DNA of 64,000 nucleotides from Terriglobia bacterium (GTDB taxonomy: Bacteria; Acidobacteriota; Terriglobia; JAIQFV01): positions 158,101 to 222,100 of the forward strand of contig JBGQBO010000001.1 in assembly GCA_041494885.1 (NCBI GenBank). The letters are read 5' to 3'. A model generated the notes under the pieces. The model worked only from the letters and a program-made list of their open reading frames with translations. It ran no database searches and had not been told where the DNA came from. Positions within the stretch are counted from its first letter, which is position 1. Every line of letters starts with the position of its first letter. The translations under genes were made by a program, and so were the position numbers. Of the stretch, positions 3,112-63,793 are shown one piece after another.

Positions 3112-3365
3112 ATGTAGATTATACGCAGTTTAGGAAACAAATTCCAAAAACCAATCGGTCAAAGCAAAATCCAGAGGCCAAGGTTCAAATTCCAAATATA
3201 GTCCAAAGACCAGAAGCCATAGGGTCGATGTACAACTCGGGGCCCGCGACGGCTCAATCCCGGAGTTCATCTATTCAAAGTCCGAAAGTGAATGACGACA
3301 GGGCGGGCCCGGTCTTCCGTCTTCGTTTGGAGCTTGGACTCGGGCTTTTGGAACTTGCCCTACAA

Positions 3366-3428: not shown

Positions 3429-4232
3429 TTATTTTGGCGCCGGTCCCGGCGTCGACTGCTGTTCTTTCTTGAACTTGATGTCCTTGGCCTTCTGGAACCA
3501 CTTGTCGGCTTCGTTCAGGTCCGCTTCGCGGGCTGAGCTATCCGATTCCATGTCCGCCTTTTGTCGATAGAGCAAGTTCAGGTACGCCATCGCGTCGTCG
3601 TAATCGGGATTAATCTCTACGCCCTTTTTAAGTGCCGCGATCCCTTCGTCCACAACCAGCCCATACTGCTCCCGGAAAGGGTCGCGTTCTTTGGGGGGCA
3701 AGGGGTCTCTAGCGGCCAGATTATTCAACTTATTGATGCGAATTTCCTGGTTGGTTTTATAGGACAGGGTCCAGTCCACCACCCCAATAGAATAGTAGGG
3801 CTCTGCATTGCCCGGTTCGATTTCCGTCCGCTTCTTGTACCATTTCTTGGCTTCTTCAAACTTTCCCATATTGAAATAAATCGAAGCGATTCCGGCAATG
3901 CTGCTGCCATTCTGCGGATCGGAGTTCAGCACATCCTGAAAGGCCTTGATGGCTTCGTCCCCTGTCCGTTTGTTCTCTTCCGACTCCACCCCGGGGACAT
4001 ACTGCGTGGCATACGCCGTGGCGAGGTAGAGTTTGGCATTCGTCAAACTCGGGTCCAGCGCCACCGCATCCTTGAAATAATCCACCGCCGCCTGGTATTT
4101 CTGATCGCGATAAGCACGGACTCCCTTGTTCAGTCGATCACGCGCCTTGAGTTGATTGCAGGCCATCGACCCGAACATGAGGGCAAGAATACCAACTAAG
4201 ATTGCGGTTTTTGTCCAATTCCGAGGGTTCAT
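3429..4232 (-). CDS. TPR-repeat lipoprotein
   Basis: 267 aa; signal peptide with a cysteine at the end of the hydrophobic stretch (LMFGSMAC), several TPR-like helical repeats; sits directly upstream of the exbD/exbB/tonB cluster. Confidence 0.6.
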   Translation of the reverse strand: MNPRNWTKTAILVGILALMFGSMACNQLKARDRLNKGVRAYRDQKYQAAVDYFKDAVALDPSLTNAKLYLATAYATQYVPGVESEENKRTGDEAIKAFQDVLNSDPQNGSSIAGIASIYFNMGKFEEAKKWYKKRTEIEPGNAEPYYSIGVVDWTLSYKTNQEIRINKLNNLAARDPLPPKERDPFREQYGLVVDEGIAALKKGVEINPDYDDAMAYLNLLYRQKADMESDSSAREADLNEADKWFQKAKDIKFKKEQQSTPGPAPK

Positions 4233-6304: not shown

Positions 6305-6414
6305 AGTATTAACCTTCCTCCTAAAGAAAGTTGACCACTAGTTGTTGTTGAGCGTCAGGCCCAGTCACCCCCTGCCTCGGGCAGCGACCCACTGGGCCAG
6401 GCTAAGATCCGATC

Positions 6415-10443: not shown

Positions 10444-10607
10444 GGGGCCATCATACCTTCCCGGAATGATCTCGTAAAACCCAACAAAATATTAGCCTTA
10501 ACCCTTATTTATACACGGATCCGTCGTTCGTGACTCCATTCGCCAGGTGCCTCGCGGGTTGCCCGGAGTCGTTTGCCCCTCGGTCCCCCGGGAAGTCCAT
10601 CGTCCGA

Positions 10608-10928
10608 CTATTCTTTGGCATCCTCGGGAGATTGCATGCCCACGATCGCGCTCTTGAGCATGCGCACTTTCACCTGATCGGCCACGCGAAGCGACACTGT
10701 GCTGTCGTCCAGGCTGACAATGGTTCCGAACATCCCACCTGAAGTAACGACCTTATCGCCGGACTTGAGGCCTGTCAGCATTTCGCGGGTTTTCTTTTGA
10801 CGTCGCTGCGCGGGGAGAATAAGGAGGAAGTAGAAAATAAAGCCGATGGCTATCAGTGGAAGAAAACCAACTAGCGTGGAGCTGCCTCCTGACGCTTGGG
10901 CCAGTAAATTCAAGATCGCACTACTCAA
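10608..10928 (-). CDS. yajC: Preprotein translocase subunit YajC
   Basis: 106 aa; single TM followed by PAQRRQKK...GDKVVTSGG, typical YajC. Confidence 0.85.
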   Translation of the reverse strand: MSSAILNLLAQASGGSSTLVGFLPLIAIGFIFYFLLILPAQRRQKKTREMLTGLKSGDKVVTSGGMFGTIVSLDDSTVSLRVADQVKVRMLKSAIVGMQSPEDAKE

Positions 10929-11060
10929 TGGGCATTCCTCAACTCAGATGGGATTTGGGATTTCAAACAGGACTATTTCGGGTCGTGTGCGGGTTGTGCG
11001 CTTCGCAGCCAATCCCAGGGTGGAACCTTTCGACTCCCCCGAAACGGGAACAACGGAACC

Positions 11061-16477: not shown

Positions 16478-16915
16478 ATGTTATCACCCGGAGAGCAGGC
16501 GCCCGATTTCAAGGTGAAGACCCATGAAGGAAATGAAGTTTCGCTGAGCCAATTTGGAGGGAGTAAAGTTGTCCTATGGTTTTACCCAAAGGCAGACACC
16601 CCCGGCTGAACCAACGAAGGCAAAGGATTCCGTGATCGAATCCGAGAGTATGAGGCGAAAAACACAAAGATCCTTGGCATCAGTTTTGACACCGTCGAAG
16701 AAAATGCGGCTTTTGCGAAGAAGTTTCAATTTCCATTCCCCCTGTTGTGCGATACGGACAGGAAAATAGGATTGGCTTACGGGGCGTGCGAATCGGCCCA
16801 CGATGAATATGCCAAGCGCATCACTTATGTGATCGGCGAGAATGGAAAGATCCTCCAGGCCTATCCCAAAGTCGATGCCGCACGCCATCCGAACGAGCTG
16901 CTGGAGAAGCTGTAG
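16478..16915 (+). CDS. bcp: Selenocysteine-containing peroxiredoxin (Bcp/PrxQ-like); in-frame TGA at 16607..16609 read as Sec
   Basis: ATG 16478 with AGGGAGGA Shine-Dalgarno. 43 codons (…VVLWFYPKADTPG), then TGA, then 101 in-frame codons (TNEGKGFRD…ISFDT…LLCDTD…). This aligns residue-for-residue with E. coli Bcp ([23 protein letters not shown]) with the TGA at the peroxidatic Cys. The two halves appear only as sub-threshold ORFs in the track. Confidence 0.7.
16625..16643 (+). promoter_or_regulatory. Putative bacterial SECIS hairpin for the Sec-Bcp UGA
   Basis: GGAUUC-CGUGAUC-GAAUCC: 6-bp stem with a 7-nt loop containing GU, starting 15 nt 3' of the UGA, inside the reading frame. Confidence 0.45.
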
Positions 16916-22252: not shown

Positions 22253-22828
22253 ATGAAAATAGCCCCGGGAACTGCCCTGTTACTTCTCGCTGGAATGCTG
22301 ACGATTTCATGCGGAGCCCGCCAGGAGAAGCGGCTCGCTCAAAACCTGGAATCGCTCCAGATTGCCGACCTGGGGGCGAAGGACGTGAAAGTCAGTTCGT
22401 TTCTTCCGCACGGAAAAGATGAAGCCATCCTCGTGGCCGATCTTCATACCGCCTTTCTCATGAAGAGAAATGCAAAAGGTCAATGGGAGATCCGATCGGT
22501 TCGCCTGGGTGATCGGAATTGGGAGGATGCGAAGGAACTTGCGCAAGCGCTTCGTCAGGTGAGGCTCGAACACGTCAAGAGTGATTTTGAAAAACTCGCG
22601 AACGGCATCGAAAAATACGAGAGCCAAACAAAATCCTTGCCCGCCGTGCAGGGAATCGAACCCCTGGTGGATCTCCTTTTTCCCACCTATATGCCCGAAG
22701 CTGTGCGGGTGGACCCCTGGTCAGTCGAGTACAACTACCTGCTCAAATCGCCCACATCCTATACCCTCATCTCCGCAGGTCCGGACCGCAAGTTTGGCAC
22801 TGCCGACGACATTCGGTTCGAGCGCTGA
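22253..22828 (+). CDS. Lipoprotein with a C-terminal domain resembling T2SS pseudopilin GspG (GspG_C-like)
   Basis: 191 aa; lipobox LTISC; C-terminus YNYLLKSPTSYTLISAGPDRKFGTADDIRF resembles the GspG C-terminal motif but lacks an N-terminal prepilin signal. Confidence 0.45.
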   Translation: MKIAPGTALLLLAGMLTISCGARQEKRLAQNLESLQIADLGAKDVKVSSFLPHGKDEAILVADLHTAFLMKRNAKGQWEIRSVRLGDRNWEDAKELAQALRQVRLEHVKSDFEKLANGIEKYESQTKSLPAVQGIEPLVDLLFPTYMPEAVRVDPWSVEYNYLLKSPTSYTLISAGPDRKFGTADDIRFER

Positions 22829-22985
22829 TCGGACACTGACAACGCAGACGACACAGAGAAGTGACAACAATCGTCCATGGGTTTGAGTCTCGTCTGCGTA
22901 AGGAGTGTCCAAAATGAAAACCGGCTGGAAATGACATGATTTCTGCCAGACCAGCCGGAGAACTGCAACAAACTACCCTCTTGCT

Positions 22986-23561
22986 TCACGGAAACTTCGT
23001 CACGGCCTCAATGACCTGCTGATCAGGCAACAGCTTTCCTTCCACGTTTTCCCAAAGGATCTTACCGTCTGCTCCTACCAGAAAGTAAGTTCTCTTGGCC
23101 ACTACGGAGTGGATGCCCGGGACGTTGATTTCATGTTCGATGTGATAGTCCTTAACGACCTTGCGTTCCATGTCACTCAACAGCGGGAACGGCAGACTCA
23201 GGCTCTCCCTGAATTTATCCTGTGAGAAGGGTGTATCCGTGCTGATGCCCCACACTTCAATGTTCTTGGCCTTGAGTTTTTCATAATTCTCTCTGAACCC
23301 AGAGAGTTCGGTCGTTCAACCTCCCGTGAAATCGAACACGTAAAAGGCCAGGAGAACCTTCTTCTTGCCTCGCATATCGCTCAATTTCACAGGAGTGAGT
23401 TTGCCCCCCGAAGGAAGGGTAAAATCCGGGGCCAGGTCACCCACTTTGGGGGGCTGCCCATTGGCGCTCGGGGGAGGAGATGTAGTTTGAGCCACTGACA
23501 GTGTCGCGCCCATGAGGCATGTCGCTACAAGCAGTAACCCGACAAAAAAGAGTTTTTTCAT
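22986..23561 (-). CDS. Selenocysteine-containing secreted peroxiredoxin (AhpC/TSA-like); in-frame TGA at 23318..23316 read as Sec
   Basis: Track ORFs 23316..23645 (-) and 22986..23255 (-) are in the same frame, separated only by one TGA. The joined protein is signal peptide MKKLFFVGLLLVATCLMG … VLLAFYVFDFTGG-U-TTELSGFRENYEKLKAKNIEVWGISTDTPFSQ… This is the Prx FDFTFVCPTE motif with Sec in place of the peroxidatic Cys. Start ATG chosen at the signal peptide (23561), preceded by a GAAAGG Shine-Dalgarno. Confidence 0.7.
23289..23306 (-). promoter_or_regulatory. Putative bacterial SECIS hairpin for the Sec-Prx UGA
   Basis: mRNA: UGA + 9 nt + CUCUCUG-GGUU-CAGAGAG (perfect 7-bp stem, GGUU apical loop). 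Confidence 0.5.
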
Positions 23562-23717
23562 CGTGGCCTTTCTCAAAAAATGAGATTCAGAATCGATTTT
23601 CAATTGGAGCCATGACACTATATCGAATCCCCCGGGAACATGCAAGCGACGAGTGGGCCTTCAGGCCTTCAACAAAGGATTCGAGCTCCGTCAAGACCGA
23701 ATCTCAAAAACTACGGC

Positions 23718-24728
23718 TTAACCTTTGGCCGCGATGCCCTCGAGTCTTTTGAGGTGGGAGGGATCCCCCATCGCGATCAGGCAGTCGCCGGCCTCGATGC
23801 GCGTCTCCGAAGTGGGGTTAAACACCATGTTTCCATCCGCTTTCTTCATGGCCAGGACAATGATGTTCATTTCCTGACGGATCCCGGAATCCTGCAAGGT
23901 TCGGTTGGAGAGGGCACAACCTGTGCTGATAGGAATCTCTTCGATCGCCAGATTCAATTTCTCAGCGCCCAGGGTCGATGTGGCCACGTCAAGAAAGTCG
24001 TAGACGTTGGGACGCAGCATTGCCTGGGCAATGCGGTGCCCCGTAAAAATATAAGGCGAGATGACCTCGGTGGCGCCCGCCCGTCGCAGCTTTTCCTCGG
24101 CATCTTCTTCACTGGCCCGCGCGATAATGGGCAAATTTTGTCTCAAGCCACGCGCGGTCAGGGTCACATAGACGTTGTCGGCATCAGAGGTGATGACACT
24201 GATTAACCCCCTCGCTCGTTCGATACCGGCATCTCTCAACACCGTCTCTTTGGTGGAATCCCCCAAAATGACCAGGGCGCCCTCTTCACGAATACGGTTG
24301 GCCTTTGCCTCATCCCTTTCGATGACGACAAAAGCGACTGAGTGGGACCGAAATTCCTTGGCCACTCTTCGACCCACCCGCCCGGCCCCGCAGATGATGA
24401 AATGATCTTTAATTTGCTGAATATCCTTTTCCATACGCCTCCGCCCCAGAATCGTATGGACTTCCAGGCTGATAAAATACTGGACCAAGCTGGTCACCGC
24501 AAAACCCGCGGATCCGATGCCCAACACCACCAGCACCACCGTAAGGAATTTTCCCGCCGGGCTGATCTCCAGGATGCCGTCGTAACCCAGTGTGCTCACG
24601 GTGATGACCGTGACGTAGAAGCTACGCCCCAGGCTCCAGTGCTCAATGTAGTGAAACCCCAGCGTGCCGATGCCGTTCACGATCAGCATGAGGGAGAGGA
24701 TGAGGTAGATTCTGTAAGTTAACTTCAA
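23718..24728 (-). CDS. Potassium channel protein with TrkA/RCK regulatory domains
   Basis: 336 aa; two TM helices plus pore region SFYVTVITVSTLGYDGI, then Rossmann GxGxxG (ICGAGRVGRR) RCK-N and RCK-C. Confidence 0.8.
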   Translation of the reverse strand: MKLTYRIYLILSLMLIVNGIGTLGFHYIEHWSLGRSFYVTVITVSTLGYDGILEISPAGKFLTVVLVVLGIGSAGFAVTSLVQYFISLEVHTILGRRRMEKDIQQIKDHFIICGAGRVGRRVAKEFRSHSVAFVVIERDEAKANRIREEGALVILGDSTKETVLRDAGIERARGLISVITSDADNVYVTLTARGLRQNLPIIARASEEDAEEKLRRAGATEVISPYIFTGHRIAQAMLRPNVYDFLDVATSTLGAEKLNLAIEEIPISTGCALSNRTLQDSGIRQEMNIIVLAMKKADGNMVFNPTSETRIEAGDCLIAMGDPSHLKRLEGIAAKG

Positions 24729-25058: not shown

Positions 25059-25763
25059 ATGAAAGTTCAAGTTCTTTACTTTGCATATTGTCGTGACCTC
25101 ATGGGTTGTGAGCGCGAGTGGCTAACCCTCGATGACACGGCGAGCGTCGCAGACCTGCTGACGAAGTGTCTCTCAGAGAAACCTGCCTTGGAACCCCTCA
25201 AAAAGAATCTCCTGGTCGCTGTCAATCAGGAATACGCAAGGACTGACCACAGATTGGTAGATGGGGATGAAGTCGCCATCTTTCCTCCGGTGAGCGGGGG
25301 AGCTGCAGAGATCGATGTCCTGCATGATTTTTTTGCCATCACGAAGTCACCCATCGACACTGCGCACATACTTCAGGCCTTGAAACAGCCCCAGGATGGA
25401 GCCGTCGTGGCCTTTGAGGGAATTGTCCGAAACAACTCCCGGGGCAAGCAAACGCGCTACGTGGAATATCATGGCTATGAACCCATGGCACTTAAGAAGA
25501 TTCGCGAAATCGGCGAGCGTATTAAATCCATGTGGGACATCGACGGCGTCGCTATCGTGCACCGGTTGGGCCATTTGGAAATTGGTGAATCGAGTGTCCT
25601 CATTGTGGTTACTTCGCCCCACCGTAAAGCGGCATTTGATGCCTGCCACTACGCCATCGACGTTCTGAAGAAGACCGTTCCTATTTGGAAGAAAGAGTGC
25701 TTTGAGGACGGTGAAGTGTGGGTTGAAGGCGACATCCCTGTCAAGGCATGCCACGAGCACTAA
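25059..25763 (+). CDS. moaDE: Molybdopterin synthase MoaD-MoaE fusion
   Basis: 234 aa; N-terminal 81 aa ends ...IFPPVSGG (MoaD Gly-Gly). The remainder matches MoaE (VVAFEGIVRNNSRGK...YHGYEPMA...). Confidence 0.85.
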   Translation: MKVQVLYFAYCRDLMGCEREWLTLDDTASVADLLTKCLSEKPALEPLKKNLLVAVNQEYARTDHRLVDGDEVAIFPPVSGGAAEIDVLHDFFAITKSPIDTAHILQALKQPQDGAVVAFEGIVRNNSRGKQTRYVEYHGYEPMALKKIREIGERIKSMWDIDGVAIVHRLGHLEIGESSVLIVVTSPHRKAAFDACHYAIDVLKKTVPIWKKECFEDGEVWVEGDIPVKACHEH

Positions 25764-47269: not shown

Positions 47270-50200
47270 TTAATCTTTAATGATCTGCAATTGCTGGTCC
47301 CCCGCCTCCGATGGGACCTCCTCATCGACCTTCAACAACAGATGTCGATCCGCCTTGGCGAGCGGAATCGCGGACCCGTCATCAGCGAAAAAATTCAACC
47401 GGAGACTCTGCAAGGGGCCCGAGTTGAGAAAGAAAAATTGGGTCTTGTAGCCTCCCCCCTCGGTAATCTGGGGGAAGATCATAGAGGGTGAAGGAGATTG
47501 CCTTGCAATTCCCACGGGAAAAGTGGTGAGCAGAAAATCTCCCCGCGAATTGGTAAACGCTCGCATCGTCAGCACAGCAAAAGGCGTTGCTGACGAAAGG
47601 TCAACGACCCCGATGAACTCGTCAGGCAAGCCTCCCGGTATCAATTCCTCAAGAAACCGTGATTGATGGCCCATCGCGCTCACGTCGAGCGATCCGCTCC
47701 CGGCCCCACTCACTCCATTCCGCTCATACACATTGATGCCGACTCGCAGTGGAATCGGCCCCGGATTTGCCACCGCCAGTCCCGTGTCGTGCCCCTCCGA
47801 CTTGTCCACGAAGACCCGCGCATGTGTGGTCAGGGATGCGGAAGGGATTCCGGACTCGGTGACGACAACCCCACCCTGGGAATAACTCAAGACGCCCGCA
47901 CCGACCGGAGTTAGCCGCGCTGGGTCGGGGAGGACTTGAACCAACCCCGAGTTGACATGAGTCGGGGAGCCGTCAGTCTGAAAGACGTAGAGGCCGCCTG
48001 GAGGGATGGCATAGGGAAAAGACGAGTCTGCCCGCCCGTTGATCTGTTGAACCGTAAGCGATGATCCATTGTCCCCCAAGATCCGCAATTCCCCCGTTTC
48101 AAGCGTAGCCGATGGGTTCATCAGAATCAGTGTGGTCTTGTATCCGCCTCCGTCGACGAGGTGCGGAAAGTAGAGCGGATCGACTGCAGGTGCCTGACTC
48201 AGATCCGCGACTGGAGTGCTCGTCATTAATGCTTCACCGCGGGAGTTGTTCGTTAATCTCAACGCCAGCAGGGCAAGGGGCTGACTACTCTTGATTTCAA
48301 GCGTCCCAAACTGGATGGCGGAAGAAAAGTCGGGCGGAAAAACAAATCCGCGGGCAAGGTCGCTGAGCTGATCGATAAACCGTGACACGTGGCTATTCGC
48401 AAGGAGCGTTCCGAACCCAACCGCTAGCGGCGAACCATCGACGCCCCTCAGTGTAAACTTGACATCCGCCGAGAGGTTGTTTCCATTGACGATGGCAAGA
48501 CCTGTGTTGGTCTCGATCTTAGTGGCATCGAGACGACCTGTTTTTGCGGAAAAACTCGATCGGTAATCGATAAAAATCTGGGCCGCGGTCGTTGGCTGAG
48601 AGGGAGGTACTCCCACCTCACTCACCACGACTCCATTCTGAGTCAAGGCGAAGACCGCCGTCCCATAGGGGAGTGCCCCCGTCTTCGGGGACAACGTTGC
48701 ATAACCCGCCTGCGCCGCCCCTCCATTGCCTGAGGTAGCATGGATAGCCATTCCGGCGGCCGGAAGATCCAGATCTACTTCGGAGCTGCCGGGTGTAGAG
48801 AGGACGGAAATGATTCGGAAATCACTTGCCAACCCTGATCGATCCTGAAGTTGGACCTGGATCTGGCGCGTGTCGGCTAGGCGATTGGAGCCGGTAAAAG
48901 CAATCTCGGAAACAAATGAGGTCTTATTATCGACTCTCGTCCCGATGTCAAAGCTCCCCGTGCCCAAAACCTGTCCCTGCGCATCAAACCGGGTCTCGGT
49001 CAATCCGACCACGTCGCCTTGCCCATCCCTGCCATAGAACTGTATCCGGATCACTCCATTCGCAGAATCGGCTTGGAAACTTGCGGTCGCGGTGTCGAGG
49101 ATGGGGGGCCCGCTTTCAACGACGCCCCGGATCATCAGGTTGACCGGGGTTCCTTCATTCCACATCCTGGATCCCCCGAACGTCGCCCCGTTGTCCGTAG
49201 AAACATATCCCCCCTGTCTATCCGGGCCGCTCGAATCCAGGGCCGCAGAAACGGCCCCAGAGGCAGGGTACTGGAATCCGATGTACCAATCTCCCGAATC
49301 GATCGCAGGCCCGTTCACAATGGGGAAATCGACATATCCGTTATTGCCATGAATGACCGCCCACTGGTCGACCAGAAGAACGGGAGAATCCGGGGAACGA
49401 TTTGTGGCAGTACGATCGGTGAATGCGACCAAGCGTATTGATTGCCCCAGAGAACCCTGGGCATTCAAGTCCTGAGGGATAAAGATTCGAATGGCTTTCA
49501 ACTTTGAAGGATAGCGACGCGGTGTCAAACGGTTGACCACCATCAAGCCGGTCCCAGGCAAGCTGCTTTCCATCGATCCATCATCGACCAACAACTCCTC
49601 GGTCTTCAGCGCACTGGAAGGGTTCACCAGACTTGCCCGCAAGGCAAAACTGGTCTGGGAGTTGCTGCAGTTGGCCACGGCGATATAATAGGTTCCTGGA
49701 ACCAGGGGAGGAGTGGTCTGGTCGTTGACATAAAGGCTTTGATCGGGAAGAGTGGTCTCCGACTTGTAATCAGCGGTGATCCGTCCCCCCGCAAGAACAA
49801 CCGATTGATCCCGCCGCAAAAACAAATTCACGTTTTGATTCCCTGAGAGTGTGACAATGAGTTGCAGTGTGCCGGCGGGGACATCAATAGTGTATTGTGA
49901 AGGGCCGAGCGTGCAGGTGGTGGCCGAGGAACCGGGCGAAAGGACAGCGGAGGTCTGAACCCCCGAAACGAGATTCACGATTCCGGTATCCGACAGGTTG
50001 GAAGCGAAGCTTTGAACAAAAAGATCTCCATTGAAAGAACCCCAACCCGTCACCTGATCATAAGCGACCTCAGCGGAGAACCCCGGCACGGCGCCCGTGC
50101 TGTTGCTCCCGACTGTCACATCGTGAAACGTTTGGAGGCCGCCCGAAGTCAGCTGGGTCCGGCCCATTTCATAGATTCGGGTGTTCGCCAAACCGACGCC

Positions 50201-51658
50201 GTCACTGCTCGTCCCAGGAACGGCAACAACCTGATTGACTAAACCGAAAAGACCCGCCCACAAGGGAGCGCTCAAACTGGTTCCCCCAATGCAACATCGG
50301 AGGGTCCCTCCCTGGTACCAGTAAACACCCTGTTGGCCCGGATTTCCCATAGCCGCTACATCCGGGACATCCCGCATTCCATCCTTTGGAACCCCGGGAC
50401 CGAACTGGTAAGCGGGTTTTGCATAAAACTTCGATTTTCCTCCGCCGCTTCCACTCCAAGCCGTTTCCTCGCCATACTCAGTGACATTCCCATCAACATC
50501 GAGTACCGGATTGAGATTGGTCCCACCCACACAGGTGGCGTATGGTGAGGAACAAAGACGGTTCACGTCCGGGCCCGAACTGAGTTGAGAGCCCGCGGCA
50601 AACTGCTGAACTCCATTGTCACCGGACGCCACGAAAACCGATTGACCCTGGGAAGCCGCTTGCATGTAACGCTGGTCACTTTGAATCAGTGTCAGATCGG
50701 AAACCATGCTTTCCCCGCCGCCAAAACTGATGCTTACGACGTGCGACGAGGGAAGTCGGTTCACAATGTAATCGAGCGAAGGACTAATGCTGGCGTTGGT
50801 GGGAGCAATGACGACCTGAATGCTCGCTGCCGGAGCCATCGCCCCCGACCATTCGGCATCGAGCAAGACCTCCGTCACCTCGCTGGGGTTGCTCATCCCC
50901 GGATTTTGACCCGGAACCACAAATATCTTTTGGGGGTCGCTGGGGGGCAACCCGAAGAAATTGCGAAAAGCCTGGACATCGCCAATGTCGAAATCACTGC
51001 GCGCCACAATGGCAATGCTCTGCCCTGCTCCGTCGATCCCGATGTTATAGAGGGGGAGGAGGTTGTAGGCGCGATGAAGGTCAGCCGGCGCCATCGAAGT
51101 TCGTGTTCCGCTCCGGTAAAGGGGTTGCTCATCGGGAAAATTATCGAGGCCGAACACCCCCAGCGCACGGTCTTGAAATGGCTCCGAAATCTGCGGGGCG
51201 CGATCGTTGCCGTAAAACCGCTTCCCTTCAAACTCATACGTCCCCATACTAATCTTGAAGGCGCGTTCCACCTGCGCCACCGTCCCGTCAAAATACACCG
51301 AAAGCCGATTCGGATAGGCGTGCGTCACCACCATCCCATTCTGCTGCAGCCATCGAATGACACGTTGAAATTCATCCTCGGAAACTCCGAACCGCGCTCC
51401 AAATTCTTCCGGCGTCAGCCATCGATGATATTGGGCCGATCGGGGGTTCTGTTGTTCTTCCAGAAGCTGCTGCAATCCGGCCAGGTTCTGGATCCTGAAA
51501 GCGAGCAGCATCGACTTGAGTTCCATGGAGGGTTCCGCCCTGCTGACAAAGCGGCTCTGCTTCAAGAAAACCGGCGCCTTCTCTGCTGAGGGGTTGACTG
51601 AGGGTACGATCAAGAACGACAAGAACAGCAAAAGGAATGAAGAACGCTTCGAATTCAT
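47270..51658 (-). CDS. Sedolisin (S53) peptidase with about 1000-aa C-terminal tandem beta-rich domains
   Basis: Start at MNSKRSSFLLLFLSFL signal peptide (track ORF extends to 51823); pro-kumamolisin activation domain, catalytic GGTSLSAPLWAG serine motif; C-terminal two-thirds is repetitive Gly/Ser/Thr-rich domains. Confidence 0.75.
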   Translation of the reverse strand: MNSKRSSFLLLFLSFLIVPSVNPSAEKAPVFLKQSRFVSRAEPSMELKSMLLAFRIQNLAGLQQLLEEQQNPRSAQYHRWLTPEEFGARFGVSEDEFQRVIRWLQQNGMVVTHAYPNRLSVYFDGTVAQVERAFKISMGTYEFEGKRFYGNDRAPQISEPFQDRALGVFGLDNFPDEQPLYRSGTRTSMAPADLHRAYNLLPLYNIGIDGAGQSIAIVARSDFDIGDVQAFRNFFGLPPSDPQKIFVVPGQNPGMSNPSEVTEVLLDAEWSGAMAPAASIQVVIAPTNASISPSLDYIVNRLPSSHVVSISFGGGESMVSDLTLIQSDQRYMQAASQGQSVFVASGDNGVQQFAAGSQLSSGPDVNRLCSSPYATCVGGTNLNPVLDVDGNVTEYGEETAWSGSGGGKSKFYAKPAYQFGPGVPKDGMRDVPDVAAMGNPGQQGVYWYQGGTLRCCIGGTSLSAPLWAGLFGLVNQVVAVPGTSSDGVGLANTRIYEMGRTQLTSGGLQTFHDVTVGSNSTGAVPGFSAEVAYDQVTGWGSFNGDLFVQSFASNLSDTGIVNLVSGVQTSAVLSPGSSATTCTLGPSQYTIDVPAGTLQLIVTLSGNQNVNLFLRRDQSVVLAGGRITADYKSETTLPDQSLYVNDQTTPPLVPGTYYIAVANCSNSQTSFALRASLVNPSSALKTEELLVDDGSMESSLPGTGLMVVNRLTPRRYPSKLKAIRIFIPQDLNAQGSLGQSIRLVAFTDRTATNRSPDSPVLLVDQWAVIHGNNGYVDFPIVNGPAIDSGDWYIGFQYPASGAVSAALDSSGPDRQGGYVSTDNGATFGGSRMWNEGTPVNLMIRGVVESGPPILDTATASFQADSANGVIRIQFYGRDGQGDVVGLTETRFDAQGQVLGTGSFDIGTRVDNKTSFVSEIAFTGSNRLADTRQIQVQLQDRSGLASDFRIISVLSTPGSSEVDLDLPAAGMAIHATSGNGGAAQAGYATLSPKTGALPYGTAVFALTQNGVVVSEVGVPPSQPTTAAQIFIDYRSSFSAKTGRLDATKIETNTGLAIVNGNNLSADVKFTLRGVDGSPLAVGFGTLLANSHVSRFIDQLSDLARGFVFPPDFSSAIQFGTLEIKSSQPLALLALRLTNNSRGEALMTSTPVADLSQAPAVDPLYFPHLVDGGGYKTTLILMNPSATLETGELRILGDNGSSLTVQQINGRADSSFPYAIPPGGLYVFQTDGSPTHVNSGLVQVLPDPARLTPVGAGVLSYSQGGVVVTESGIPSASLTTHARVFVDKSEGHDTGLAVANPGPIPLRVGINVYERNGVSGAGSGSLDVSAMGHQSRFLEELIPGGLPDEFIGVVDLSSATPFAVLTMRAFTNSRGDFLLTTFPVGIARQSPSPSMIFPQITEGGGYKTQFFFLNSGPLQSLRLNFFADDGSAIPLAKADRHLLLKVDEEVPSEAGDQQLQIIKD

Positions 51659-52229
51659 TGCCGGTGGATTCCGCCTCCAGGTTGGCGCTCTTGTACCACA
51701 CCCCGCGTGAGCGCGCAAGTAAACAGCGTCGCCATGTTCAATGAAAATGTTTGCAGGAATGTCACTGCGAGCAGATTTTGAGAAATCACAACGGGGTCTT
51801 GCGTTGGCCAAAATGGGTCTCATGCCAGGAGAGCGTCACACTTTGGCGGGATGCAATCCCGATCTTAACCCCCATGAACCTGATCTCTAAATCATCCTGT
51901 TGCCCAAAGCCAGCATGTTTTCCGGTGGATAGAGTTAGTCCTGGGCTCAAGACGGTCATGAAATGGATTGGCTTTAGCAGTCGGGTGAATGCTGCTCACC
52001 TCGTCAGCCCTGGAGGCAGCCATGAGAAGGCCATTGGATGGAGACAGAAACGCATCCTTCCGTGATGTGCCGAATGCCTGCTGCCCGCCCTTATATTTTT
52101 TCCTCGCACACAAGGAGAATGATTTTACCCCTTAACTCTTGGGCTGGTTTTTGGGTATACTGTAAGCAAGAGGCTGAGAACTTCGACAACACGCTCTTCT
52201 GAACACGCAAGCGTATAGATCATACGCTC

Positions 52230-56673: not shown

Positions 56674-57530
56674 AACCCACCACGGTGGATTAACAGTTGC
56701 GGCGAGCGGATTCTCAAAATGTGTCACACTGTTCCATATGCTGTTCTTTTGTCGCTTGCTTATTGATGATTTCCCGCTCACCCCGTCTAATATCATCTGC
56801 CACCATTTCTGAGCGTGGTGGGGCACAAAATGGGACACAGTTTTTGTAGAGTGAGAATTCGCCCTGACCGGCCCATGACCCACCACCCATGCTCCCTCAT
56901 GGTCATCGCTCAATTTAGGGACTTTCTTCTTGAAGTTGTGTCCGGTAAGCTTTACACTTTTTCTCGGAAAGTTGCTCCCCCATGTCGGCCTTTGAACACA
57001 ATGACGATTGGCTGGCACTTGAAGCTTTCGATAAAACGATCCCATTCCCCGAACAGAGCGAAAAAGAAGTTGGGAAGCCGGAATCATTTGGTGTGGGAGT
57101 ATTCCACTCATGTCCTCATTTCATTGCGACACGCCGGCTTGCATCGGGGTTCTCAATCGGGATAGGAGGGGATTTTGCGGTCCGGCGGACATCCCGTGAA
57201 ATTCTGTAACGCGATTTCCGTCAAGGACTGCAGGACTTGTCTTAGCATGCAGAATGGGCTGTGTTTGTTTCGACGTTGCCGCCTGATTATGAATTAGGTG
57301 CACAAACGGCAGCCATTGGCCGCGTGAATTGATTGGTCATTTATGGGCAGTCTGTTGTGCAAGGACAAAATGTACATGGGAGCAATGATCACGTCCTGCT
57401 ACATTAGGCTGTGGAGACCGCAGTGTTTGGCTCTACGTGAGAGCAATCTAATACGGCTTCATGTATTAGATCGGCTTCAACACCATTGATCCACATGAAG
57501 GAGCACCTGCCACATAGGTCTGAGCAGCAC

Positions 57531-58463
57531 ATGAGCGGAGAGCGCGGGCCCGCTATTTTGAAACTGCGCCTCCCCACCAATTGGATCGTTCGCGAGCAAC
57601 CGACGAGCGACTATGGAATTGACGTTGAAGTGGAACTCGCCTCGGATACAGTAAGCGGCATCCTGTGCAAAGGCCAAGTCAAATCCAAGACTCCTATTGC
57701 TTGGCGGCAAGATGGCACTTTTCGCGAAGTCGTTGGGAAGAAGAAGCTGGTCTACTGGCAGATTCTCGCTCTGCCAGTTGTCGTATTTCTAGTCGACAAT
57801 ACCACGGAGGAGGTATTTTGGGCGCCGGTCACGTCATCAGCGCCCGCTGAGCTAGTGATTACAGACTCAGTGACGATCGAGAGGCGGATGAACCTTCCCC
57901 AAACAACAGATGCTCTCGAGCGCCATATACGAGGTTATGTCCATTATGCCACTGCGAAGCGGTCGCTGTACCGTCTTCCCGGCACATTGGAACGCTGGCA
58001 GCGCCGCCTTGAATCCACGGACCGGGATTTCTTTCTCCCCGTCGATGAAGAATTCTATCGCGAAACCCATGAATTCTTCGACGAGCTTTTGACCCTGCGC
58101 GAGGCCGTTGGACTTTCCAACGCTGACATCCTGCCATGGATCATTTGGACAGAGCGGTCCCGGTTATTCTTCCCTGACGGTGGCGGGTTGTTGTATTGGG
58201 GCATCTACGATGAGCTTGTCACGTACCTCAAACCTTTTATTGAAGAGACGGTCGAACGGGCGAAGACGCTGCTTGAGAGGGAAGACCCAACGCCTGCGAA
58301 TGCGGCAGCCAAAGCGTTAGTCGACAAGGAAAAGAGGGGGTATGCGGTCTCGTATCGATTTGACTTTGGTCTTCAGGACAGCTTGGACTGGAACAAGATT
58401 GAGCGCATCCTGGACGAAAAGGGTGCTTTGTTCATGCGAATGAAAAAGAAGCAACCAGTATAA
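57531..58463 (+). CDS. DUF4365-like restriction-endonuclease-fold protein with unknown C-terminal domain
   Basis: Start at internal Met MSGERGPAIL; N-terminus ...LPTNWIVREQPTSDYGIDVEVEL...ILCKGQVKSK...YWQILALPVVVFLVD matches the DUF4365 PD-(D/E)xK pattern (D-YGID-xExE...Q.K); about 200 aa C-terminal region with no recognised motif; lower GC than neighbours. Confidence 0.55.
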   Translation: MSGERGPAILKLRLPTNWIVREQPTSDYGIDVEVELASDTVSGILCKGQVKSKTPIAWRQDGTFREVVGKKKLVYWQILALPVVVFLVDNTTEEVFWAPVTSSAPAELVITDSVTIERRMNLPQTTDALERHIRGYVHYATAKRSLYRLPGTLERWQRRLESTDRDFFLPVDEEFYRETHEFFDELLTLREAVGLSNADILPWIIWTERSRLFFPDGGGLLYWGIYDELVTYLKPFIEETVERAKTLLEREDPTPANAAAKALVDKEKRGYAVSYRFDFGLQDSLDWNKIERILDEKGALFMRMKKKQPV

Positions 58464-58542
58464 GTGCCGAACGTGGTGTTGAAACCGACGCGAAAAGAAA
58501 GCGTGCGGCTGACAATCGGCGTTAGATTTATTAGGGGGCGCA

Positions 58543-59466
58543 GTGGAGTACGGTCTTACGCTAATGGTTTTGGGAGCACCGGAGTTCGTCCGAATATCGG
58601 AAGCGGATTATCAAACAATCATCGAGGCGAAACGTGGGTTGTTCGAGTGTCTTTATGTTGAAGAGAAGTTCGACCTTGTGGTCGAGAACTACTTCGAACT
58701 GGAGATATCCCTCCTCGAGTCGGCTGCAAATCATATGGTATTCGGCCGACTGGACTATCGTTACATCCAGGTCGAGCGAGGGTTGTACAATCGGCGACTC
58801 GCGAACCTCCTATCTGCTGGTCGGATCTATGCAGATCATGTGAAACAGCACATCGAGCGGATCTTTCCGCCCGACTCAAATAACGTTCAAGAATTGATTG
58901 CAAAGTTCAGTGAGCAATACGACAAACGACTGGGCTATCGTTCCATGGAAGCCCTTAGAAACTTCATACAGCATCGTGGGCTTCTCGTCCACTCGATGGC
59001 TTACAAAATCAAGCGAGTCAAGCGAACGGGAGAGGACGGGCTGCTCTTCATGGTCACCCCCTATCTAGTGCCAGAGGAACTGCGTGCTGATGGTGATTTC
59101 AAAATGGCAGTGCTTGAGGAGCTCGAGAGTCTCGGAGAAAAGATTGATTTGAAGGAGTTGGTTCGCGACTACATAGAGGGACTGTGGACCGTGCACGAGA
59201 AGATTCGCGAACGTATTCGCCCTTTGACCGAGGCATGGGATTATACGATGCGCAAGGCAGTAGGCCGCTTCCACTCAAACTATCCAGACAAAGATACGGC
59301 TGGTCTCGCAGCTGTCGCTCGCGATGCCGACGACCACTACCTGGATGCGATACCTGTGTTCACTGATTTCATAGAGTACCGTCAGAACTTGGAAGGGAAG
59401 AACAGAAATCTTGTCAACCTTGTGAACCGGTACGTGACGAATGAAGTCGTCGATAAGAAACTCTAA
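58543..59466 (+). CDS. Hypothetical protein, possible HEPN-like (Rx4H: RNFIQH)
   Basis: 307 aa, all-alpha prediction, ALRNFIQHRG motif; no other recognisable domain. Confidence 0.35.
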   Translation: MEYGLTLMVLGAPEFVRISEADYQTIIEAKRGLFECLYVEEKFDLVVENYFELEISLLESAANHMVFGRLDYRYIQVERGLYNRRLANLLSAGRIYADHVKQHIERIFPPDSNNVQELIAKFSEQYDKRLGYRSMEALRNFIQHRGLLVHSMAYKIKRVKRTGEDGLLFMVTPYLVPEELRADGDFKMAVLEELESLGEKIDLKELVRDYIEGLWTVHEKIRERIRPLTEAWDYTMRKAVGRFHSNYPDKDTAGLAAVARDADDHYLDAIPVFTDFIEYRQNLEGKNRNLVNLVNRYVTNEVVDKKL

Positions 59467-59542
59467 CCACTGCGTCCAGACTGTCGGGCGCTGCTGCGCC
59501 AGCCGCTGACGCCTGACGTTAGGCGCCCTCGGGGGGGTATCT

Positions 59543-60196
59543 ATGGCTCAAGATCTACTGAACAGTCTCGCGAATCCGATCATCGCGGTCGGAACACTCG
59601 TCACCGCAATCGCAACCCTTATTGTGGCCATCTACACGACGGGTCTTTGGCGCGAGATTAGGAAACAAAGGAAGGCGATGCAAAAGCCTATATTGGTAGC
59701 ATCCAGGCTTCCGAAAGACGTCGACAATTCTAAAAGCGTCTTTGTTGGCAATTTTGAGTACCCACGCTTTGACTCTTTTGAAACTTCTAGGCTCTACTAC
59801 CTTGGCTTAAAAAACATCGGTCAAGGTCACGCACTCAATGTGCGAGTAGATTCTCTCTTGGTAAATGGCAAGGGCATAGCAATCGGCATTCCGCCTGCGT
59901 GCCACGTTCAGGCTAACGAAACGGTCGCGCTGATAGCAAGATTTGGTTATAACGAACCCGTCTCTGATCTCGAACACAACCCATACCAAGTTGTCATTTC
60001 CTATAGTGATACAGAGGCCAACGAATATGTCTTAAATCTCAATCTCTGGTTCCCGTGGGCTGACCAAGAAGAGGCGATTCAAGCTGTTGTGCTCGGCTCA
60101 CTTGATTCCAGGGCTGAGTTCGGTGCGATCACCGGATCTCTGTCTCGTTATGCGGAATCAATGGGCTACTTCGAACTGCAGCGTCTCATTAGCTGA
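59543..60196 (+). CDS. Hypothetical membrane-anchored protein (single N-terminal TM)
   Basis: 217 aa; IIAVGTLVTAIATLIVAIYTTGLW TM then KQRK; no recognisable domain. Confidence 0.35.
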   Translation: MAQDLLNSLANPIIAVGTLVTAIATLIVAIYTTGLWREIRKQRKAMQKPILVASRLPKDVDNSKSVFVGNFEYPRFDSFETSRLYYLGLKNIGQGHALNVRVDSLLVNGKGIAIGIPPACHVQANETVALIARFGYNEPVSDLEHNPYQVVISYSDTEANEYVLNLNLWFPWADQEEAIQAVVLGSLDSRAEFGAITGSLSRYAESMGYFELQRLIS

Positions 60197-60376
60197 GGGA
60201 ATAATGAAAAGGCCACCGAACAAGATGATGAGACTGACGAAGCCGGAGCTGCACCCGTCGGCCCCGACGAGGCGCGGTTGATGATTTTCGGAAACGCTGA
60301 GATGCTCTGCACATGAGGGCCGATTATTCGCCAGGATGAAAACGCGGCGATGATTAGCGGGATGGAATAGAGAATC

Positions 60377-63300
60377 ATGCCAGAGAACCTGATAGAGCTT
60401 TACTTGACCGACATGGGAGAAATCCGAGGGACAGGATCTAACGTCCCGGAGACTTCGTTCTATCCAGCATTGGAAAGGCTGCTCTCCAGCATCGGAAAAG
60501 ACCTTTCTCCCAAGGTCCGCTGCGTCATCAACCTTTCCAACCGAGGCGCTGGCCTACCGGACGGCGGCTTGTTCTCCGCCGAGCAGTTCCGCCGCAAGAC
60601 GCGAGACGTGGTTCGCCGAGGCTCAACACAGGCGGACGCCAAGGAGAATCCGTTCCTGGTTCAGAACCCGTCGCGTGGCGTGATTGAAGCCAAGCCGCCG
60701 GCTGAGGATGTGCACCGGGTGGCCGGGAGCGAGCAGGTGGAGCGATACTGGAAGCGTTACGGCATGGTGCTCGTCACCAATTTCCGCGCCTTCGCCCTCA
60801 TCGGCAAAGGCCCAAACGGGCAGCCAAGCGCCCTGGAATCCTTCACGCTGGCCGAGTCCGAGAGTGAATTCTGGCGTCTGACCGCCCATCCTCGACGGGC
60901 GGCGGCAGAACACGGCGAACGCATGGTGGAGTATTTGAAGCGGGTGCTGCTCCATAATGCGCCACTGGCCGCTCCGCAAGACGTGGCCGGCATTCTTGCC
61001 TCCTACGCCCACGACGCGCGCCTGCGCATCGAAAAGGCTGACCTTCCAGCCCTGGCCACCCTCCGGCAGGCACTCGAAGATGCCCTTGGCCTGCATTTCG
61101 AGGGCGAGAAGGGCGAGCATTTCTTCCGTTCGACGCTCATCCAGACGCTTTACTATGGCGTCTTCTCTGCTTGGGTCTTGTGGGCGCGACAGCATGACGT
61201 CAACCGCGAAGAGAAGACTCGCTTCGCCGATGCCATCCGCGAGTCTGCGGCACCGTATACCGTCTCCGGCGGCTTTGACTGGCGCTCAGCCCACTTTCTT
61301 CTACGCGTTCCCATGCTCCGCGCCCTTTTCGTTCAAGTCGCCGACCCCGCCCGGCTAGGTGCGTTGGGGCTCATCGAAGCTCTCGATTGGACCGCCGCTG
61401 CCCTCAATAGAGTTGACCGCGACGAGTTCTTCAAATCCTTCGACGAGGGGCATGCCGTCCAGTATTTCTATGAGCCCTTCCTGCACGCGTTCGATCCCGA
61501 ACTGCGCAAGGAACTCGGCGTCTGGTACACCCCCGAAGAGATCGTTCGCTACCAAGTCGAACGCGTGGACGCCGTCCTCCGCTCTGAACTCGGTCTCGCC
61601 GATGGACTCGCGGACCCGAAAGTGATCGTCCTGGATCCCTGTTGCGGGACCGGCGCATATCTGCGGGCTGTCCTTCGCCGCATCGCTGTCACCCTGCATG
61701 ACAAAGGCGGCGATGCCCTTGTCGCGAACGATCTCAAGAAAGCCGCCATGGAGCGCATCTTTGGTTTCGAGATCCTGCCAGCGCCATTCGTCATTGCCCA
61801 TCTCCAACTCGGTCTGGAACTGGGAACACTCGGAGCGCCGCTGAGTGACCGCTGCGATCCGCCCGAACGAGCGGGCGTCTATCTAACCAACGCCCTCACC
61901 GGCTGGGAGCCACCCAAGGAAAAACCCAAACAGATAGCCTTCCCCGGTTTCGAGGACGAGCGCGACGCCGCCGGCGAGGTAAAGCAGAATAAGCCCATCC
62001 TCGTGATCCTCGGCAACCCGCCCTACAATGGATACGCGGGCATGGCTATGGATGAGGAACGCGACTTATCGAACGCATACCGCACGGCAAAGAAGGTCGC
62101 GACGCCGCAGGGCCAGGGCCTGAACGATCTCTATGTCCGCTTCTACCGCATGGCCGAACGCCGCATAGTAGAGAAGAACGGGCAAGGCATCGTCTCCTTC
62201 ATCTCAAATTATTCCTGGCTCGATGGTCTCTCTTTTACCGGCATGCGTGAACACTACCTCGCCGCCTTCGACCGCATCTGGATCGATAACCTGCATGGCG
62301 ACCGGATTATTTCCGAGTATGCGCCCGACGGCCACACCAGCGAAACCATTTTTGCCATCGAAGGCAACTCACCGGGGATTAAGATTGGCACGGCCATCAG
62401 CTTGCTCGTCAAGAGCGGCACGGGACAAGCCAAAGTCCTTTACCGCGACATGAACCAAGCTCGTGCCGCAGAACGCCGTTCCGCGTTGCTCGCCAGTCTT
62501 GAGGGCTACGAACCGTTGAAGCCCGTTCTCGAAATTGGCTTGCCGTTCAAGCCCCGAGTAGTCTCGAACGCGTACCTCGGCGGGCCGTTGCTTCCAAAGT
62601 TGTTTCCGATTTGGTTCCCTGGCGTGAAGACCAGCCGCGACGATGTGGTCGTGGACATTGACCGCGACCGGCTGGTGAACCGCATGAAAGAGTACTTCGA
62701 CCCGGAGATCACACACGAGCAGATGCGTCAAATTTCGCCATCAGCTATGACCAGCACCAACCGCTTCAAAGCGGAAGCGGTGCGCGATCAGCTCCGCAAA
62801 CGCGGTTTTCTTGCAAAGAACATCGTCCGTTACTGCTATCGCCCCTTTGACGTCCGCTGGCTTTACTGGGAACCCGAGACCAAGTTGCTCGACGAAAAGC
62901 GTAGCGAGTACTTCCTACACGCCGTCGAAGGGAACATCTGGCTCAGTGCCGGTCAGCGCAACCGCAAAGAAGACTTCTATCAGCCACAGGTCACCTCGTT
63001 ACTCGCCGATCACCACATCGTCGAGTCGAATGTGGGCATGTTCCCACTCTACCTGTACGCGCGGACAGAGCACGCGCTCCTGTTACAGCAAGCGGGCCGC
63101 AATCCGAACCTCACCGACGCGGTGGCGGCGTATCTCGCCGCGTTGAAGGCGACGCCTGAAGACCTGTTCTACCACACGCTGGCGATCCTACATGCCCCGG
63201 CCTACCGCGGGGAAAACGCCGGAGCCTTGCGCCAGGACTGGCCGCGGATACCGCTACCAGGGGGAAAGGATGCTCTGCTCGCCTCTCCCATGCTCGGGCG

Positions 63301-63793
63301 GGAGGTGGCAGCGTTGCTGGACACGGAGACGCTCGTGCCCGGCGTGACCGTTGGCAAGATTCGTGAGGACCTCAAGCACATCGCGGTCTTTCAGCGCCTG
63401 GACGGCAAACCGGCACGACCCGAAGCCGGCGACTTGGATCTGACCGCCGGCTGGGGCCACGCTGGCAAGGGCGGAGTGACTATGCCGGGCAAAGGGAAAC
63501 CTATTCGACGGGACGACGGCGCCAACGACATTTTTCTCAACGATATTGCTTCCTGGCGGAACGTACCCGAGGCGGTGTGGGAGTACACCATCGGCGGTTA
63601 CCAAGTCATCAAGAAATGGCTATCGTACCGGGAAAAGCCACTCCTTGGCCGTAGCCTGACCCCCGACGAAGTCCGTTATGTAACGGAAATGGCGCGGCGT
63701 ATTGCAGCGCTTGTCTCTTTGCAAGCCAAATTGGACGAGAACTACCGACTTGCGGTCAAGGCGATGCACAAATGGCCAATGCAGCACAAATGA
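60377..63793 (+). CDS. Type IIG/IIL-like restriction-modification enzyme (or PglX-like): gamma-class N6-adenine DNA methyltransferase in an 1138-aa polypeptide with possible N-terminal PD-ExK nuclease
   Basis: Motif I VLDPCCGTGAYL precedes motif IV ILGNPPYNGY (gamma order); N-terminal LPDGGLF...VIEAKPP could be a PD-(D/E)xK; about 500 aa C-terminal TRD-like region. Confidence 0.7.
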   Translation: MPENLIELYLTDMGEIRGTGSNVPETSFYPALERLLSSIGKDLSPKVRCVINLSNRGAGLPDGGLFSAEQFRRKTRDVVRRGSTQADAKENPFLVQNPSRGVIEAKPPAEDVHRVAGSEQVERYWKRYGMVLVTNFRAFALIGKGPNGQPSALESFTLAESESEFWRLTAHPRRAAAEHGERMVEYLKRVLLHNAPLAAPQDVAGILASYAHDARLRIEKADLPALATLRQALEDALGLHFEGEKGEHFFRSTLIQTLYYGVFSAWVLWARQHDVNREEKTRFADAIRESAAPYTVSGGFDWRSAHFLLRVPMLRALFVQVADPARLGALGLIEALDWTAAALNRVDRDEFFKSFDEGHAVQYFYEPFLHAFDPELRKELGVWYTPEEIVRYQVERVDAVLRSELGLADGLADPKVIVLDPCCGTGAYLRAVLRRIAVTLHDKGGDALVANDLKKAAMERIFGFEILPAPFVIAHLQLGLELGTLGAPLSDRCDPPERAGVYLTNALTGWEPPKEKPKQIAFPGFEDERDAAGEVKQNKPILVILGNPPYNGYAGMAMDEERDLSNAYRTAKKVATPQGQGLNDLYVRFYRMAERRIVEKNGQGIVSFISNYSWLDGLSFTGMREHYLAAFDRIWIDNLHGDRIISEYAPDGHTSETIFAIEGNSPGIKIGTAISLLVKSGTGQAKVLYRDMNQARAAERRSALLASLEGYEPLKPVLEIGLPFKPRVVSNAYLGGPLLPKLFPIWFPGVKTSRDDVVVDIDRDRLVNRMKEYFDPEITHEQMRQISPSAMTSTNRFKAEAVRDQLRKRGFLAKNIVRYCYRPFDVRWLYWEPETKLLDEKRSEYFLHAVEGNIWLSAGQRNRKEDFYQPQVTSLLADHHIVESNVGMFPLYLYARTEHALLLQQAGRNPNLTDAVAAYLAALKATPEDLFYHTLAILHAPAYRGENAGALRQDWPRIPLPGGKDALLASPMLGREVAALLDTETLVPGVTVGKIREDLKHIAVFQRLDGKPARPEAGDLDLTAGWGHAGKGGVTMPGKGKPIRRDDGANDIFLNDIASWRNVPEAVWEYTIGGYQVIKKWLSYREKPLLGRSLTPDEVRYVTEMARRIAALVSLQAKLDENYRLAVKAMHKWPMQHK

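Follow-up and report, generated by a model that had tools for sequence, protein, structure and literature searches.

A candidate gene for an exported, selenocysteine-containing peroxiredoxin in a Terriglobia (Acidobacteriota) contig

A 64,000-nucleotide stretch of Terriglobia bacterium DNA (contig JBGQBO010000001.1, positions 158,101 to 222,100; hereafter the window) carries on its minus strand a peroxiredoxin (Prx) gene with an in-frame TGA. This segment, 23561..22986, is very probably a functional gene for an exported, selenocysteine (Sec)-containing Prx of the BCP/PrxQ type in a member of the Terriglobia (Acidobacteriota). It formed a single frame of 191 codons, in which the TGA at 23318..23316 (codon 82) was the sole interruption. 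A single domain extended over this UGA, the UGA occupied the column of the peroxidatic Cys, the UGA and a hairpin behind it were conserved, and both halves of the gene were under purifying selection. The features that carry this interpretation were:

22986..23561, minus strand: complete candidate selenoprotein gene, with ATG at 23561..23559, UGA as codon 82, terminal TGA at 22988..22986 and a 190-residue precursor
23316..23318, minus strand: UGA codon 82 at the peroxidatic Cys position, predicted to be read as Sec (alignment with homologues; TGA in orthologues)
23307..23345, minus strand: active-site motif F73-Y-V-F-D-F-T79-G-G-U82-T-T-E85 (TxxU), from alignments A1 and A2 and the motif tables of 120 homologues and 80 loci
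23091..23093, minus strand: codon of Arg157, the conserved catalytic Arg, an invariant column in alignments A1 and A2
23289..23306, minus strand: hairpin CUCUCUG-GGUU-CAGAGAG resembling a Sec insertion sequence (SECIS), perfect over 7 bp, 9 nt past the UGA, with its loop beginning 16 nt past the UGA

One peroxiredoxin frame across an in-frame UGA

The original prediction had joined two minus-strand open reading frames (ORFs; 23316..23645 and 22986..23255) into one Prx reading through AFYVFDFTGG-TGA. The two ORFs were indeed in the same frame, with no stop between them except the TGA at 23318..23316, and made up the halves of the 191-codon frame; the joined sequence read as described, and every coordinate was right. 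Translated from the ATG at 23561, the frame gave MKKLFFVGLLLVATCLMGATLSVAQ...AFYVFDFTGG*TTELSGFRENYEKLKAKNIEVWGISTDTPF... and stopped at the TGA at 22988..22986; written from both ends, it was MKKLFFVGLLLVATCLMGATLSVAQTTSPPPSANGQPPKVGDLAPDFTLPSGGKLTPVKLSDMRGKKKVLLAFYVFDFTGG*TTELSGFRENYEKLKAKNIEVWGISTDTPF...VTKFP. The gene calls of both JGI and Logan split it into pieces of 81 and 89 aa. A split gene with its own GTG start at 23255 was considered and rejected, as the 60 nt from the TGA to this GTG encode a conserved in-frame Prx helix.

Pfam family AhpC-TSA (PF00578) scored the frame at 119.7 bits (9.1e-35), well above its cut-off of 26. The match extended over residues 40–169, spanned the UGA and covered profile positions 1–122 of 124, placing the protein in this family. 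The best matches in NCBIfam and PDB were BCP/PrxQ proteins, and the PDB matches, to S. tokodaii PrxQ (2ywn/4g2e; E = 4.5e-26 for 2ywn) and A. pernix BCP, ran through the UGA site with a peroxidatic Cys opposite it. An AlphaFold2 model with X at position 82 was a single domain with a mean pLDDT of 87.5 (>90 for most of residues 38–191), and by Foldseek it superposed on Bcp4 (3hjp) with a TM score of 0.85 and a root-mean-square deviation of 2.2 Å, the TM score to PrxQ structures also being 0.85. According to the model, the Prx fold is built from one continuous chain; taken singly, each half is an incomplete fold.

The catalytic Thr, the Sec in place of Cys in TxxC and the conserved Arg were all present (T79-G-G-U82 and R157). 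The gene had been proposed as an AhpC/TSA-like Prx with Sec in the canonical FDFTFV-C-PTE active site; the family and the UGA at the peroxidatic Cys held, but the motif F-T-G-G-U-T is of the BCP/PrxQ type and not the FTFVCPTE of a typical 2-Cys Prx. No Cys was found in the mature chain of the window protein and of its two close orthologues, whereas nearly all relatives, and also the Cys forms P0004 and P0007, had a Cys 99–105 residues past the active site. With a mature chain lacking Cys, a 1-Sec mechanism is suggested.

In a six-frame translation of the window, TGA codons flanked on both sides by 40 open in-frame codons occurred well over a hundred times, and so have no weight by themselves. 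What lies beyond chance is that one Pfam domain crosses the TGA, that the TGA falls in the peroxidatic-Cys column and that it is conserved in orthologues. In the alignment, Cys stood opposite the UGA in 89 of the 120 database homologues. The window gene thus had the marks of a selenoprotein gene, an in-frame UGA opposite the redox-active Cys of homologues and coding conservation on both sides.

Close orthologues were obtained by a metagenome scan (locus L081) and by a search with the neighbouring TrkA-like gene, which added L104 as a new orthologue and also turned up L106 (from ENA), a duplicate identical to L081; the contig of L105 ended too early. Both L081 and L104, the third member of the clade, were syntenic, with 80% and 72% aa identity, respectively, to the window Prx. 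The TGA lay at the same codon in the window, L081/L106 and L104, while the terminal stops were TGA, TAG and TAA, respectively. Between the window and L081, 55 synonymous and 9 non-synonymous codon changes were counted 3′ of the TGA, and 24 and 11, respectively, in the mature part 5′ of it; between the window and L104 there were 47 synonymous and 19 non-synonymous changes 3′ of the TGA. Changes were mostly synonymous on both sides of the TGA, indicating purifying selection on both halves as one frame.

For distant relatives, an alignment of the nearest homologues served to scan one genome per species. Eighty loci were collected, almost all from Acidobacteriota (Terriglobia, Pyrinomonadaceae, Bryobacterales and Thermoanaerobaculia), and the best of them was only 49% identical to the window Prx. 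Whether related genomes use Cys or Sec had been put forward as a check on the original prediction: 68 TGA sites were found in about 66 of the 80 loci, and TGC in two. Tandem Sec-type Prx genes, each with its own type A hairpin (described below), were seen in L047 (TGA at 9497 and 10154) and L069 (TGA at 8156 and 8727). A tRNA-Met gene lay 50–320 nt 3′ of the Sec-Prx match in several Terriglobales loci (L005, L006, L007, L009, L016, L021 and L025), at about 10565..10931, or at 6326..6402 in L025.

The hairpin behind the UGA

A perfect 7-bp hairpin with a GGUU loop, 9 nt past the TGA, had been described at 23306..23289 and was found exactly there. Among the 2367 TGA triplets of the window, only 6 (0.25%) had a perfect hairpin of at least 7 bp in the SECIS position with a G in the first two loop bases. 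The hairpin core, CUCUCUGGGUUCAGAGA, was identical in nucleotide sequence in the window, L081 and L104. Over these three orthologues, synonymous third positions were fixed at 5/5 sites in the core, compared with 23/80 elsewhere downstream (Fisher p = 0.003) and 7/32 upstream. Fixation of all five synonymous sites in the core indicated a constraint at the nucleotide level beyond the protein code.

The distant relatives had other hairpins at the same relative place, of two types. Type A, GGCGUAUCA-GGC-UGAUA-U-CGCC, was 91.7% paired over 36 sequences and showed compensatory double changes at 6 of its 9 pairs, a number reached by none of 500 shuffles. Type B, CUUCCAGC and GCUGGAAG separated by 13 nt, was 94% paired over 31 sequences; being nearly invariant, it was uninformative on covariation. 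What is conserved family-wide is the presence of a structure and not a given sequence, as a SECIS requirement predicts. A stem-loop just 3′ of the UGA with a G in its apical loop is the form of a bacterial SECIS, and the window hairpin is a predicted SECIS on this ground.

Export, locus and competing explanations

Three further features were placed around the gene:

23487..23561, minus strand: predicted Sec-pathway (secretory) signal peptide, codons 1–25, MKK / LFFVGLLLVATCLMGATL / SVA, with cleavage before Q26, identified by inspection
23567..23574, minus strand: possible ribosome-binding site, the purine-rich GAGAAAGG, 5 nt 5′ of the ATG, proposed from the sequence alone
22911..22958, minus strand: terminator-like structure identified by folding, 28 nt past the stop: a strong stem-loop, CCGGCUGG...CCAGCCGG, enclosing an inner helix, and then UUUUCAUUUU (U-run)

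The N-terminus had the make-up of a type I signal peptide, namely a charged n-region (MKK), an 18-residue hydrophobic core within the usual 10–20 residues, and small residues at −3 and −1 (SVA before Q), with a maximum 12-residue Kyte-Doolittle value of 2.70. Between it and the fold, which begins near residue 38, lay a linker rich in Pro and Ser. Despite sequence divergence, an N-terminal hydrophobic segment was also found in L081, L104 and nearly all Sec-type relatives; a few relatives looked like lipoproteins, with lipobox-like LLVAGC, LLLAGC or AAQGC (L006, L016 and L041). Export of the window Prx is well supported by these signs, and the protein is most likely periplasmic; the word "secreted", used for it in the original prediction, fits in so far as the N-terminus resembles a signal peptide, but most likely means periplasmic. 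Two further genes, in L087 (TGA at 1479) and L088 (TGA at 3152), encoded FYVFDFTGG-U Prx proteins without a signal peptide and with differing downstream sequences, so the Sec form of this motif also occurs in cytoplasmic versions.

The Prx gene stands alone. Upstream on the same strand is a gene for a TrkA-type K+ channel (23718..24728), and on the downstream side lies a convergent T2SS-G-like gene (22253..22828). A scan for sigma-70 promoters 5′ of the Prx gene gave no match. The stem-loop at 22911..22958, between the two convergent genes, is likely an intrinsic terminator; its loop, longer than 8 nt, kept it out of the results of a simple terminator scan. About 40 window genes annotated with Pfam and the gene tables of the 10-kb flanks included no SelA, SelB or SelD. 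An ARAGORN search of the window returned no tRNA of any kind, and the flanks of 60 related loci yielded no tRNA-Sec. The TGT protein of the host was 99% identical to that of an NCBI Terriglobia MAG, with Acidobacteriia MAGs as the next matches, which places the host in Terriglobia. A Sec-decoding trait of the host is presumed; Sec users have been reported in Acidobacteria (PMC1794560, Table 2), for instance Occallatibacter riparius (PMC12013277).

Several observations count against a functional exported selenoprotein. Neither the 64-kb window nor the 10 kb on each of its sides contained a selA, selB, selD or tRNA-Sec gene. In loci L100–L103, where the TrkA protein is 75–76% identical, the Prx gene was absent between the TrkA and T2SS-G-like genes; the slot, 22829..23717 in the window, was at about 3470..3760 in these loci (3500..4460 in L100, where it held a 160-aa ORF, a PhdYeFM antitoxin and DUF5996). 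As it is missing there, the Prx gene is an accessory, dispensable gene in a variable intergenic slot. No redox partner was conserved beside the family when the ORFs lying up to 3.5 kb from the Sec site were clustered over 66 loci, which returned only the downstream half of the Prx, clade-specific synteny and spurious ORFs; nor was a partner gene evident among the annotated window genes. The export call came from reading the N-terminus by eye. As to the hairpin, the minimum free energy of the 63-nt stretch around it was unexceptional (z = −1.15), so that its significance rests on position, perfection and conservation. The window clade comprised three sequences, in which the hairpin was conserved with no covariation; its seventh base pair was present in the window only, the orthologue stems being of 6 bp; and no Rfam family matched it in a gathering-threshold scan of the window or an E-value scan of 23200..23400. 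Finally, the Pro of PxxxTxxC was replaced by Val75. At this position Val or Ile was usual in Sec-type relatives (most of the 68 sites reading FYV, FYI or FFV, and 5 reading FFP), and Val also occurred in some Cys forms (FYVFDFTGVC).

Some of these observations would also fit a TGA that arose by nonsense mutation or by a sequencing or assembly error, the locus then being a pseudogene or an ordinary Cys Prx gene. The public calls that split the gene into 81 and 89 aa, the missing Sec machinery in the window and its 10-kb flanks, and the absence of the gene at the locus in some relatives all agree with it. However, the JGI metagenome contig Ga0534156_0000002 (307,582 bp) and an independent Logan assembly of SRR29604912 were identical across 9.4 kb including the Prx gene, and the TGA was kept in L081, L106 and L104 (three other samples) and at the 68 distant sites. 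The purifying selection 3′ of the TGA (55 synonymous against 9 non-synonymous changes) and the conservation of the hairpin at the nucleotide level also speak against decay. A mutation or error is essentially refuted and keeps hardly any probability; the same assemblies, conserved TGA codons and selection bear out the earlier statement that an error or pseudogene was unlikely.

Alternatively, the UGA might be decoded otherwise, by reassignment to Trp or Gly, by near-cognate read-through as Trp or Cys, or mostly as termination giving an 81-residue peptide. In its favour, the Sec machinery of the host genome is a presumption and 13 relatives were translated by JGI with W opposite the UGA (e.g. 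FYVLAFTGGWT). But TGA stood at this site in the genomic relatives of these proteins, and P0008 and P0035 overran the C-termini of their near-identical partners P0003 and P0028, past true TGA stops. The most plausible reading of the "W" proteins is that UGA was translated under code 4, judging from the proteins and the DNA of relatives and not from their own DNA. In the window, TGA was the terminal stop of 19 of 37 well-supported (Pfam-matched) genes, the Prx gene among them. As the commonest true stop there, it indicated a standard genetic code in the host, and a code 4/25 reading of UGA was rejected; relatives also ended in TGA. Moreover, the UGA exactly replaces a redox-active Cys, a hallmark of Sec, where Trp or Gly would destroy catalysis, and a conserved hairpin lies at SECIS distance. 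Decoding other than as Sec is thus very unlikely. A third alternative accepts the Sec-Prx but not its release to the periplasm, because of an uncleaved anchor, a lipoprotein signal (Cys15, LVATC) or a start elsewhere. A Cys does lie inside the hydrophobic segment, the signal peptide was judged by inspection, three relatives have lipobox-like sequences, and an in-frame TTG exists upstream at 23645. On the other side, VATC is a poor lipobox and its Cys was absent in L081 and L104; a small-x-small site precedes Q or T-Q (SVA-Q, ASA-Q), SWT-Q of L104 being a poorer match; a purine-rich stretch lies 5 nt 5′ of the ATG at 23561; and the sequence 5′ of this ATG was not conserved with L081. Retention at the membrane or another start is therefore unlikely, if somewhat less so than non-Sec decoding.

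JGI proteins with Trp at the Sec position were P0001, P0002, P0003, P0006, P0008, P0017 and P0024, and also P0028, P0035, P0048, P0050, P0070, P0078 and P0090. They look like annotation artefacts on short contigs that mask selenoproteins; P0008 and P0035 pass another "W".

For the exported Sec-Prx, we infer Sec insertion, export, peroxidase activity and the kind of reductant as follows. The UGA at codon 82 would not be taken as a stop during translation. The hairpin 9 nt past it would act as a bacterial SECIS and recruit SelB with GTP and Sec-tRNA(Sec), leading to Sec insertion, a step proposed from the anatomy and conservation of the hairpin. The 25-residue signal peptide would direct the chain to the Sec translocon and be cut after SVA, leaving a periplasmic protein of about 165 residues. 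There, the U82 selenolate, activated by Thr79 and Arg157, would attack H2O2 or organic hydroperoxides and become a selenenic acid. In relatives, the downstream Cys could form a resolving selenenylsulfide; in the window Prx, as a "1-Sec" enzyme, the selenenic acid would be reduced directly by an external thiol partner.

The original prediction had also counted a second Prx gene with UGA at the same catalytic position within 7 kb. Such a gene was present 6.7 kb away, on the plus strand at 16478..16915, with an in-frame TGA at 16607..16609 at that position. Its motif is FYPKADTPG-U-T and it has no signal peptide, making it a candidate cytoplasmic selenoprotein of the BCP/PrxQ type. A 6-bp hairpin, GGAUUC-CGUGAUC-GAAUCC, lies at about 16625..16643, 15 nt past the UGA. 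In the JGI annotation, this gene is represented by a 43-aa N-terminal fragment alone; with U changed to C, its best NCBIfam match was PRK09437 (thiol peroxidase), with 101 bits against a cut-off of 140, spanning the site.

Elsewhere in the window, a plus-strand segment resembling a small defence island (57486..63793) encodes a DUF4365 protein, two proteins without a Pfam match and a 1138-aa Type ISP restriction-modification enzyme with the domains N6_Mtase, Eco57I and Type_ISP_C. A 1517-aa protein on the minus strand (47270..51823) has an N-terminal pro-kumamolisin (sedolisin) activation domain as its sole Pfam match. On the plus strand, 25059..25763 encodes a 234-aa molybdopterin synthase fusion, MoaD (ThiS-like)-MoaE, which is kept in L100–L105.

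Relation to known selenoproteins and peroxiredoxins

Sec-containing Prx proteins of COG1225/BCP that carry TxxU have long been recognised as a selenoprotein family (PMC1088965, PMC1794560 and PMC13188914). By 2006, genomes had yielded 12 members, and five conversions from Cys to Sec had been inferred (PMC1794560). A text search of these three papers found no mention of export of a Sec-Prx. Nor did the literature searched mention the signal peptide, Val in place of Pro, the lost downstream Cys or the breadth in Acidobacteriota, although earlier surveys may already count such sequences under "Prx". No NCBIfam model reached its cut-off for the window Prx or its relatives; the window Prx scored 61.5 bits against 270 for PrxU (NF040737) and 24.9 against 298 for Prx-SUH (NF045827).

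A broader proposal can be made only tentatively, and we hold it to be less probable than its converse: that an undescribed branch of exported selenoperoxiredoxins is common in Acidobacteriota, and that the window clade is a 1-Sec periplasmic peroxidase within it that has lost the downstream Cys and has Val for Pro. Almost all of the about 66 UGA-containing loci among the 80 at species level (two with tandem pairs) had predicted signal peptides. If the proposal is true, selenium supports envelope peroxide defence in one dominant soil phylum, and the genes of the branch are systematically mis-annotated (split, or with W) with no curated family model covering them; such a model would repair many entries. 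Many Acidobacteriota appear to put a predicted periplasmic selenoenzyme to peroxide defence, which would link soil selenium to the tolerance of oxidative stress in the envelope. Having Val for Pro and lacking a resolving Cys, the Sec form would be a natural test case for the effect of Sec on Prx chemistry.

Among known systems, the minimal SECIS of E. coli has a stem-loop of 17 nt at a distance of 11 nt from the UGA, with U17 and with the essential loop bases G23/U24 (PMC8659212). The window hairpin resembles this fdhF-type element in having 18 nt, lying 9 nt past the UGA and holding a G-U step in its GGUU loop. It differs in that its perfect 7-bp stem has no bulge, unlike the E. coli element with its bulged U; SelB binding is putative.

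PprX of Caulobacter crescentus is a periplasmic Prx reduced via ScsB and TlpA, a DsbD-like pathway (PMC3322552). It is a precedent for an envelope Prx that needs an envelope reductase chain. PprX uses Cys, and no ScsB, DsbD or TlpA gene lay beside the window Prx or was conserved beside its relatives. PrxU of Eubacterium acidaminophilum is a Sec Prx by experiment (Sohling et al. 2001, as cited in PMC13188914) and shares its general chemistry with the window Prx. PrxU comes from an anaerobic Firmicute, is cytoplasmic and has about 233 residues; the window Prx is no equivalog of it.

The best sequence matches were the structures of Cys BCP/PrxQ proteins (2ywn/4g2e, S. solfataricus Bcp4 3hjp, A. 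pernix 2cx3/4gqf and B. ambifaria 5enu), with about 38–40% identity, the same Thr and Arg residues and the "PG..VAKR" insertion. They differ in having Cys for Sec, in keeping the active-site Pro and in lacking a signal peptide. With the Sec-Prx family (Zhang, Gladyshev; COG1225/PF00578), the window Prx shares the BCP-type AhpC/TSA fold, Sec in TxxU in place of the peroxidatic Cys, a hairpin with an apical-loop G just past the UGA, and widespread Cys homologues. It differs from that family in its signal peptide, in having no other Cys in the mature protein, in its Terriglobia host, and in Val for the Pro of the "PxxxTxxU" quoted in PMC13188914. None of these findings overturns current understanding, and the window gene fits the definition of the established Sec-Prx family.

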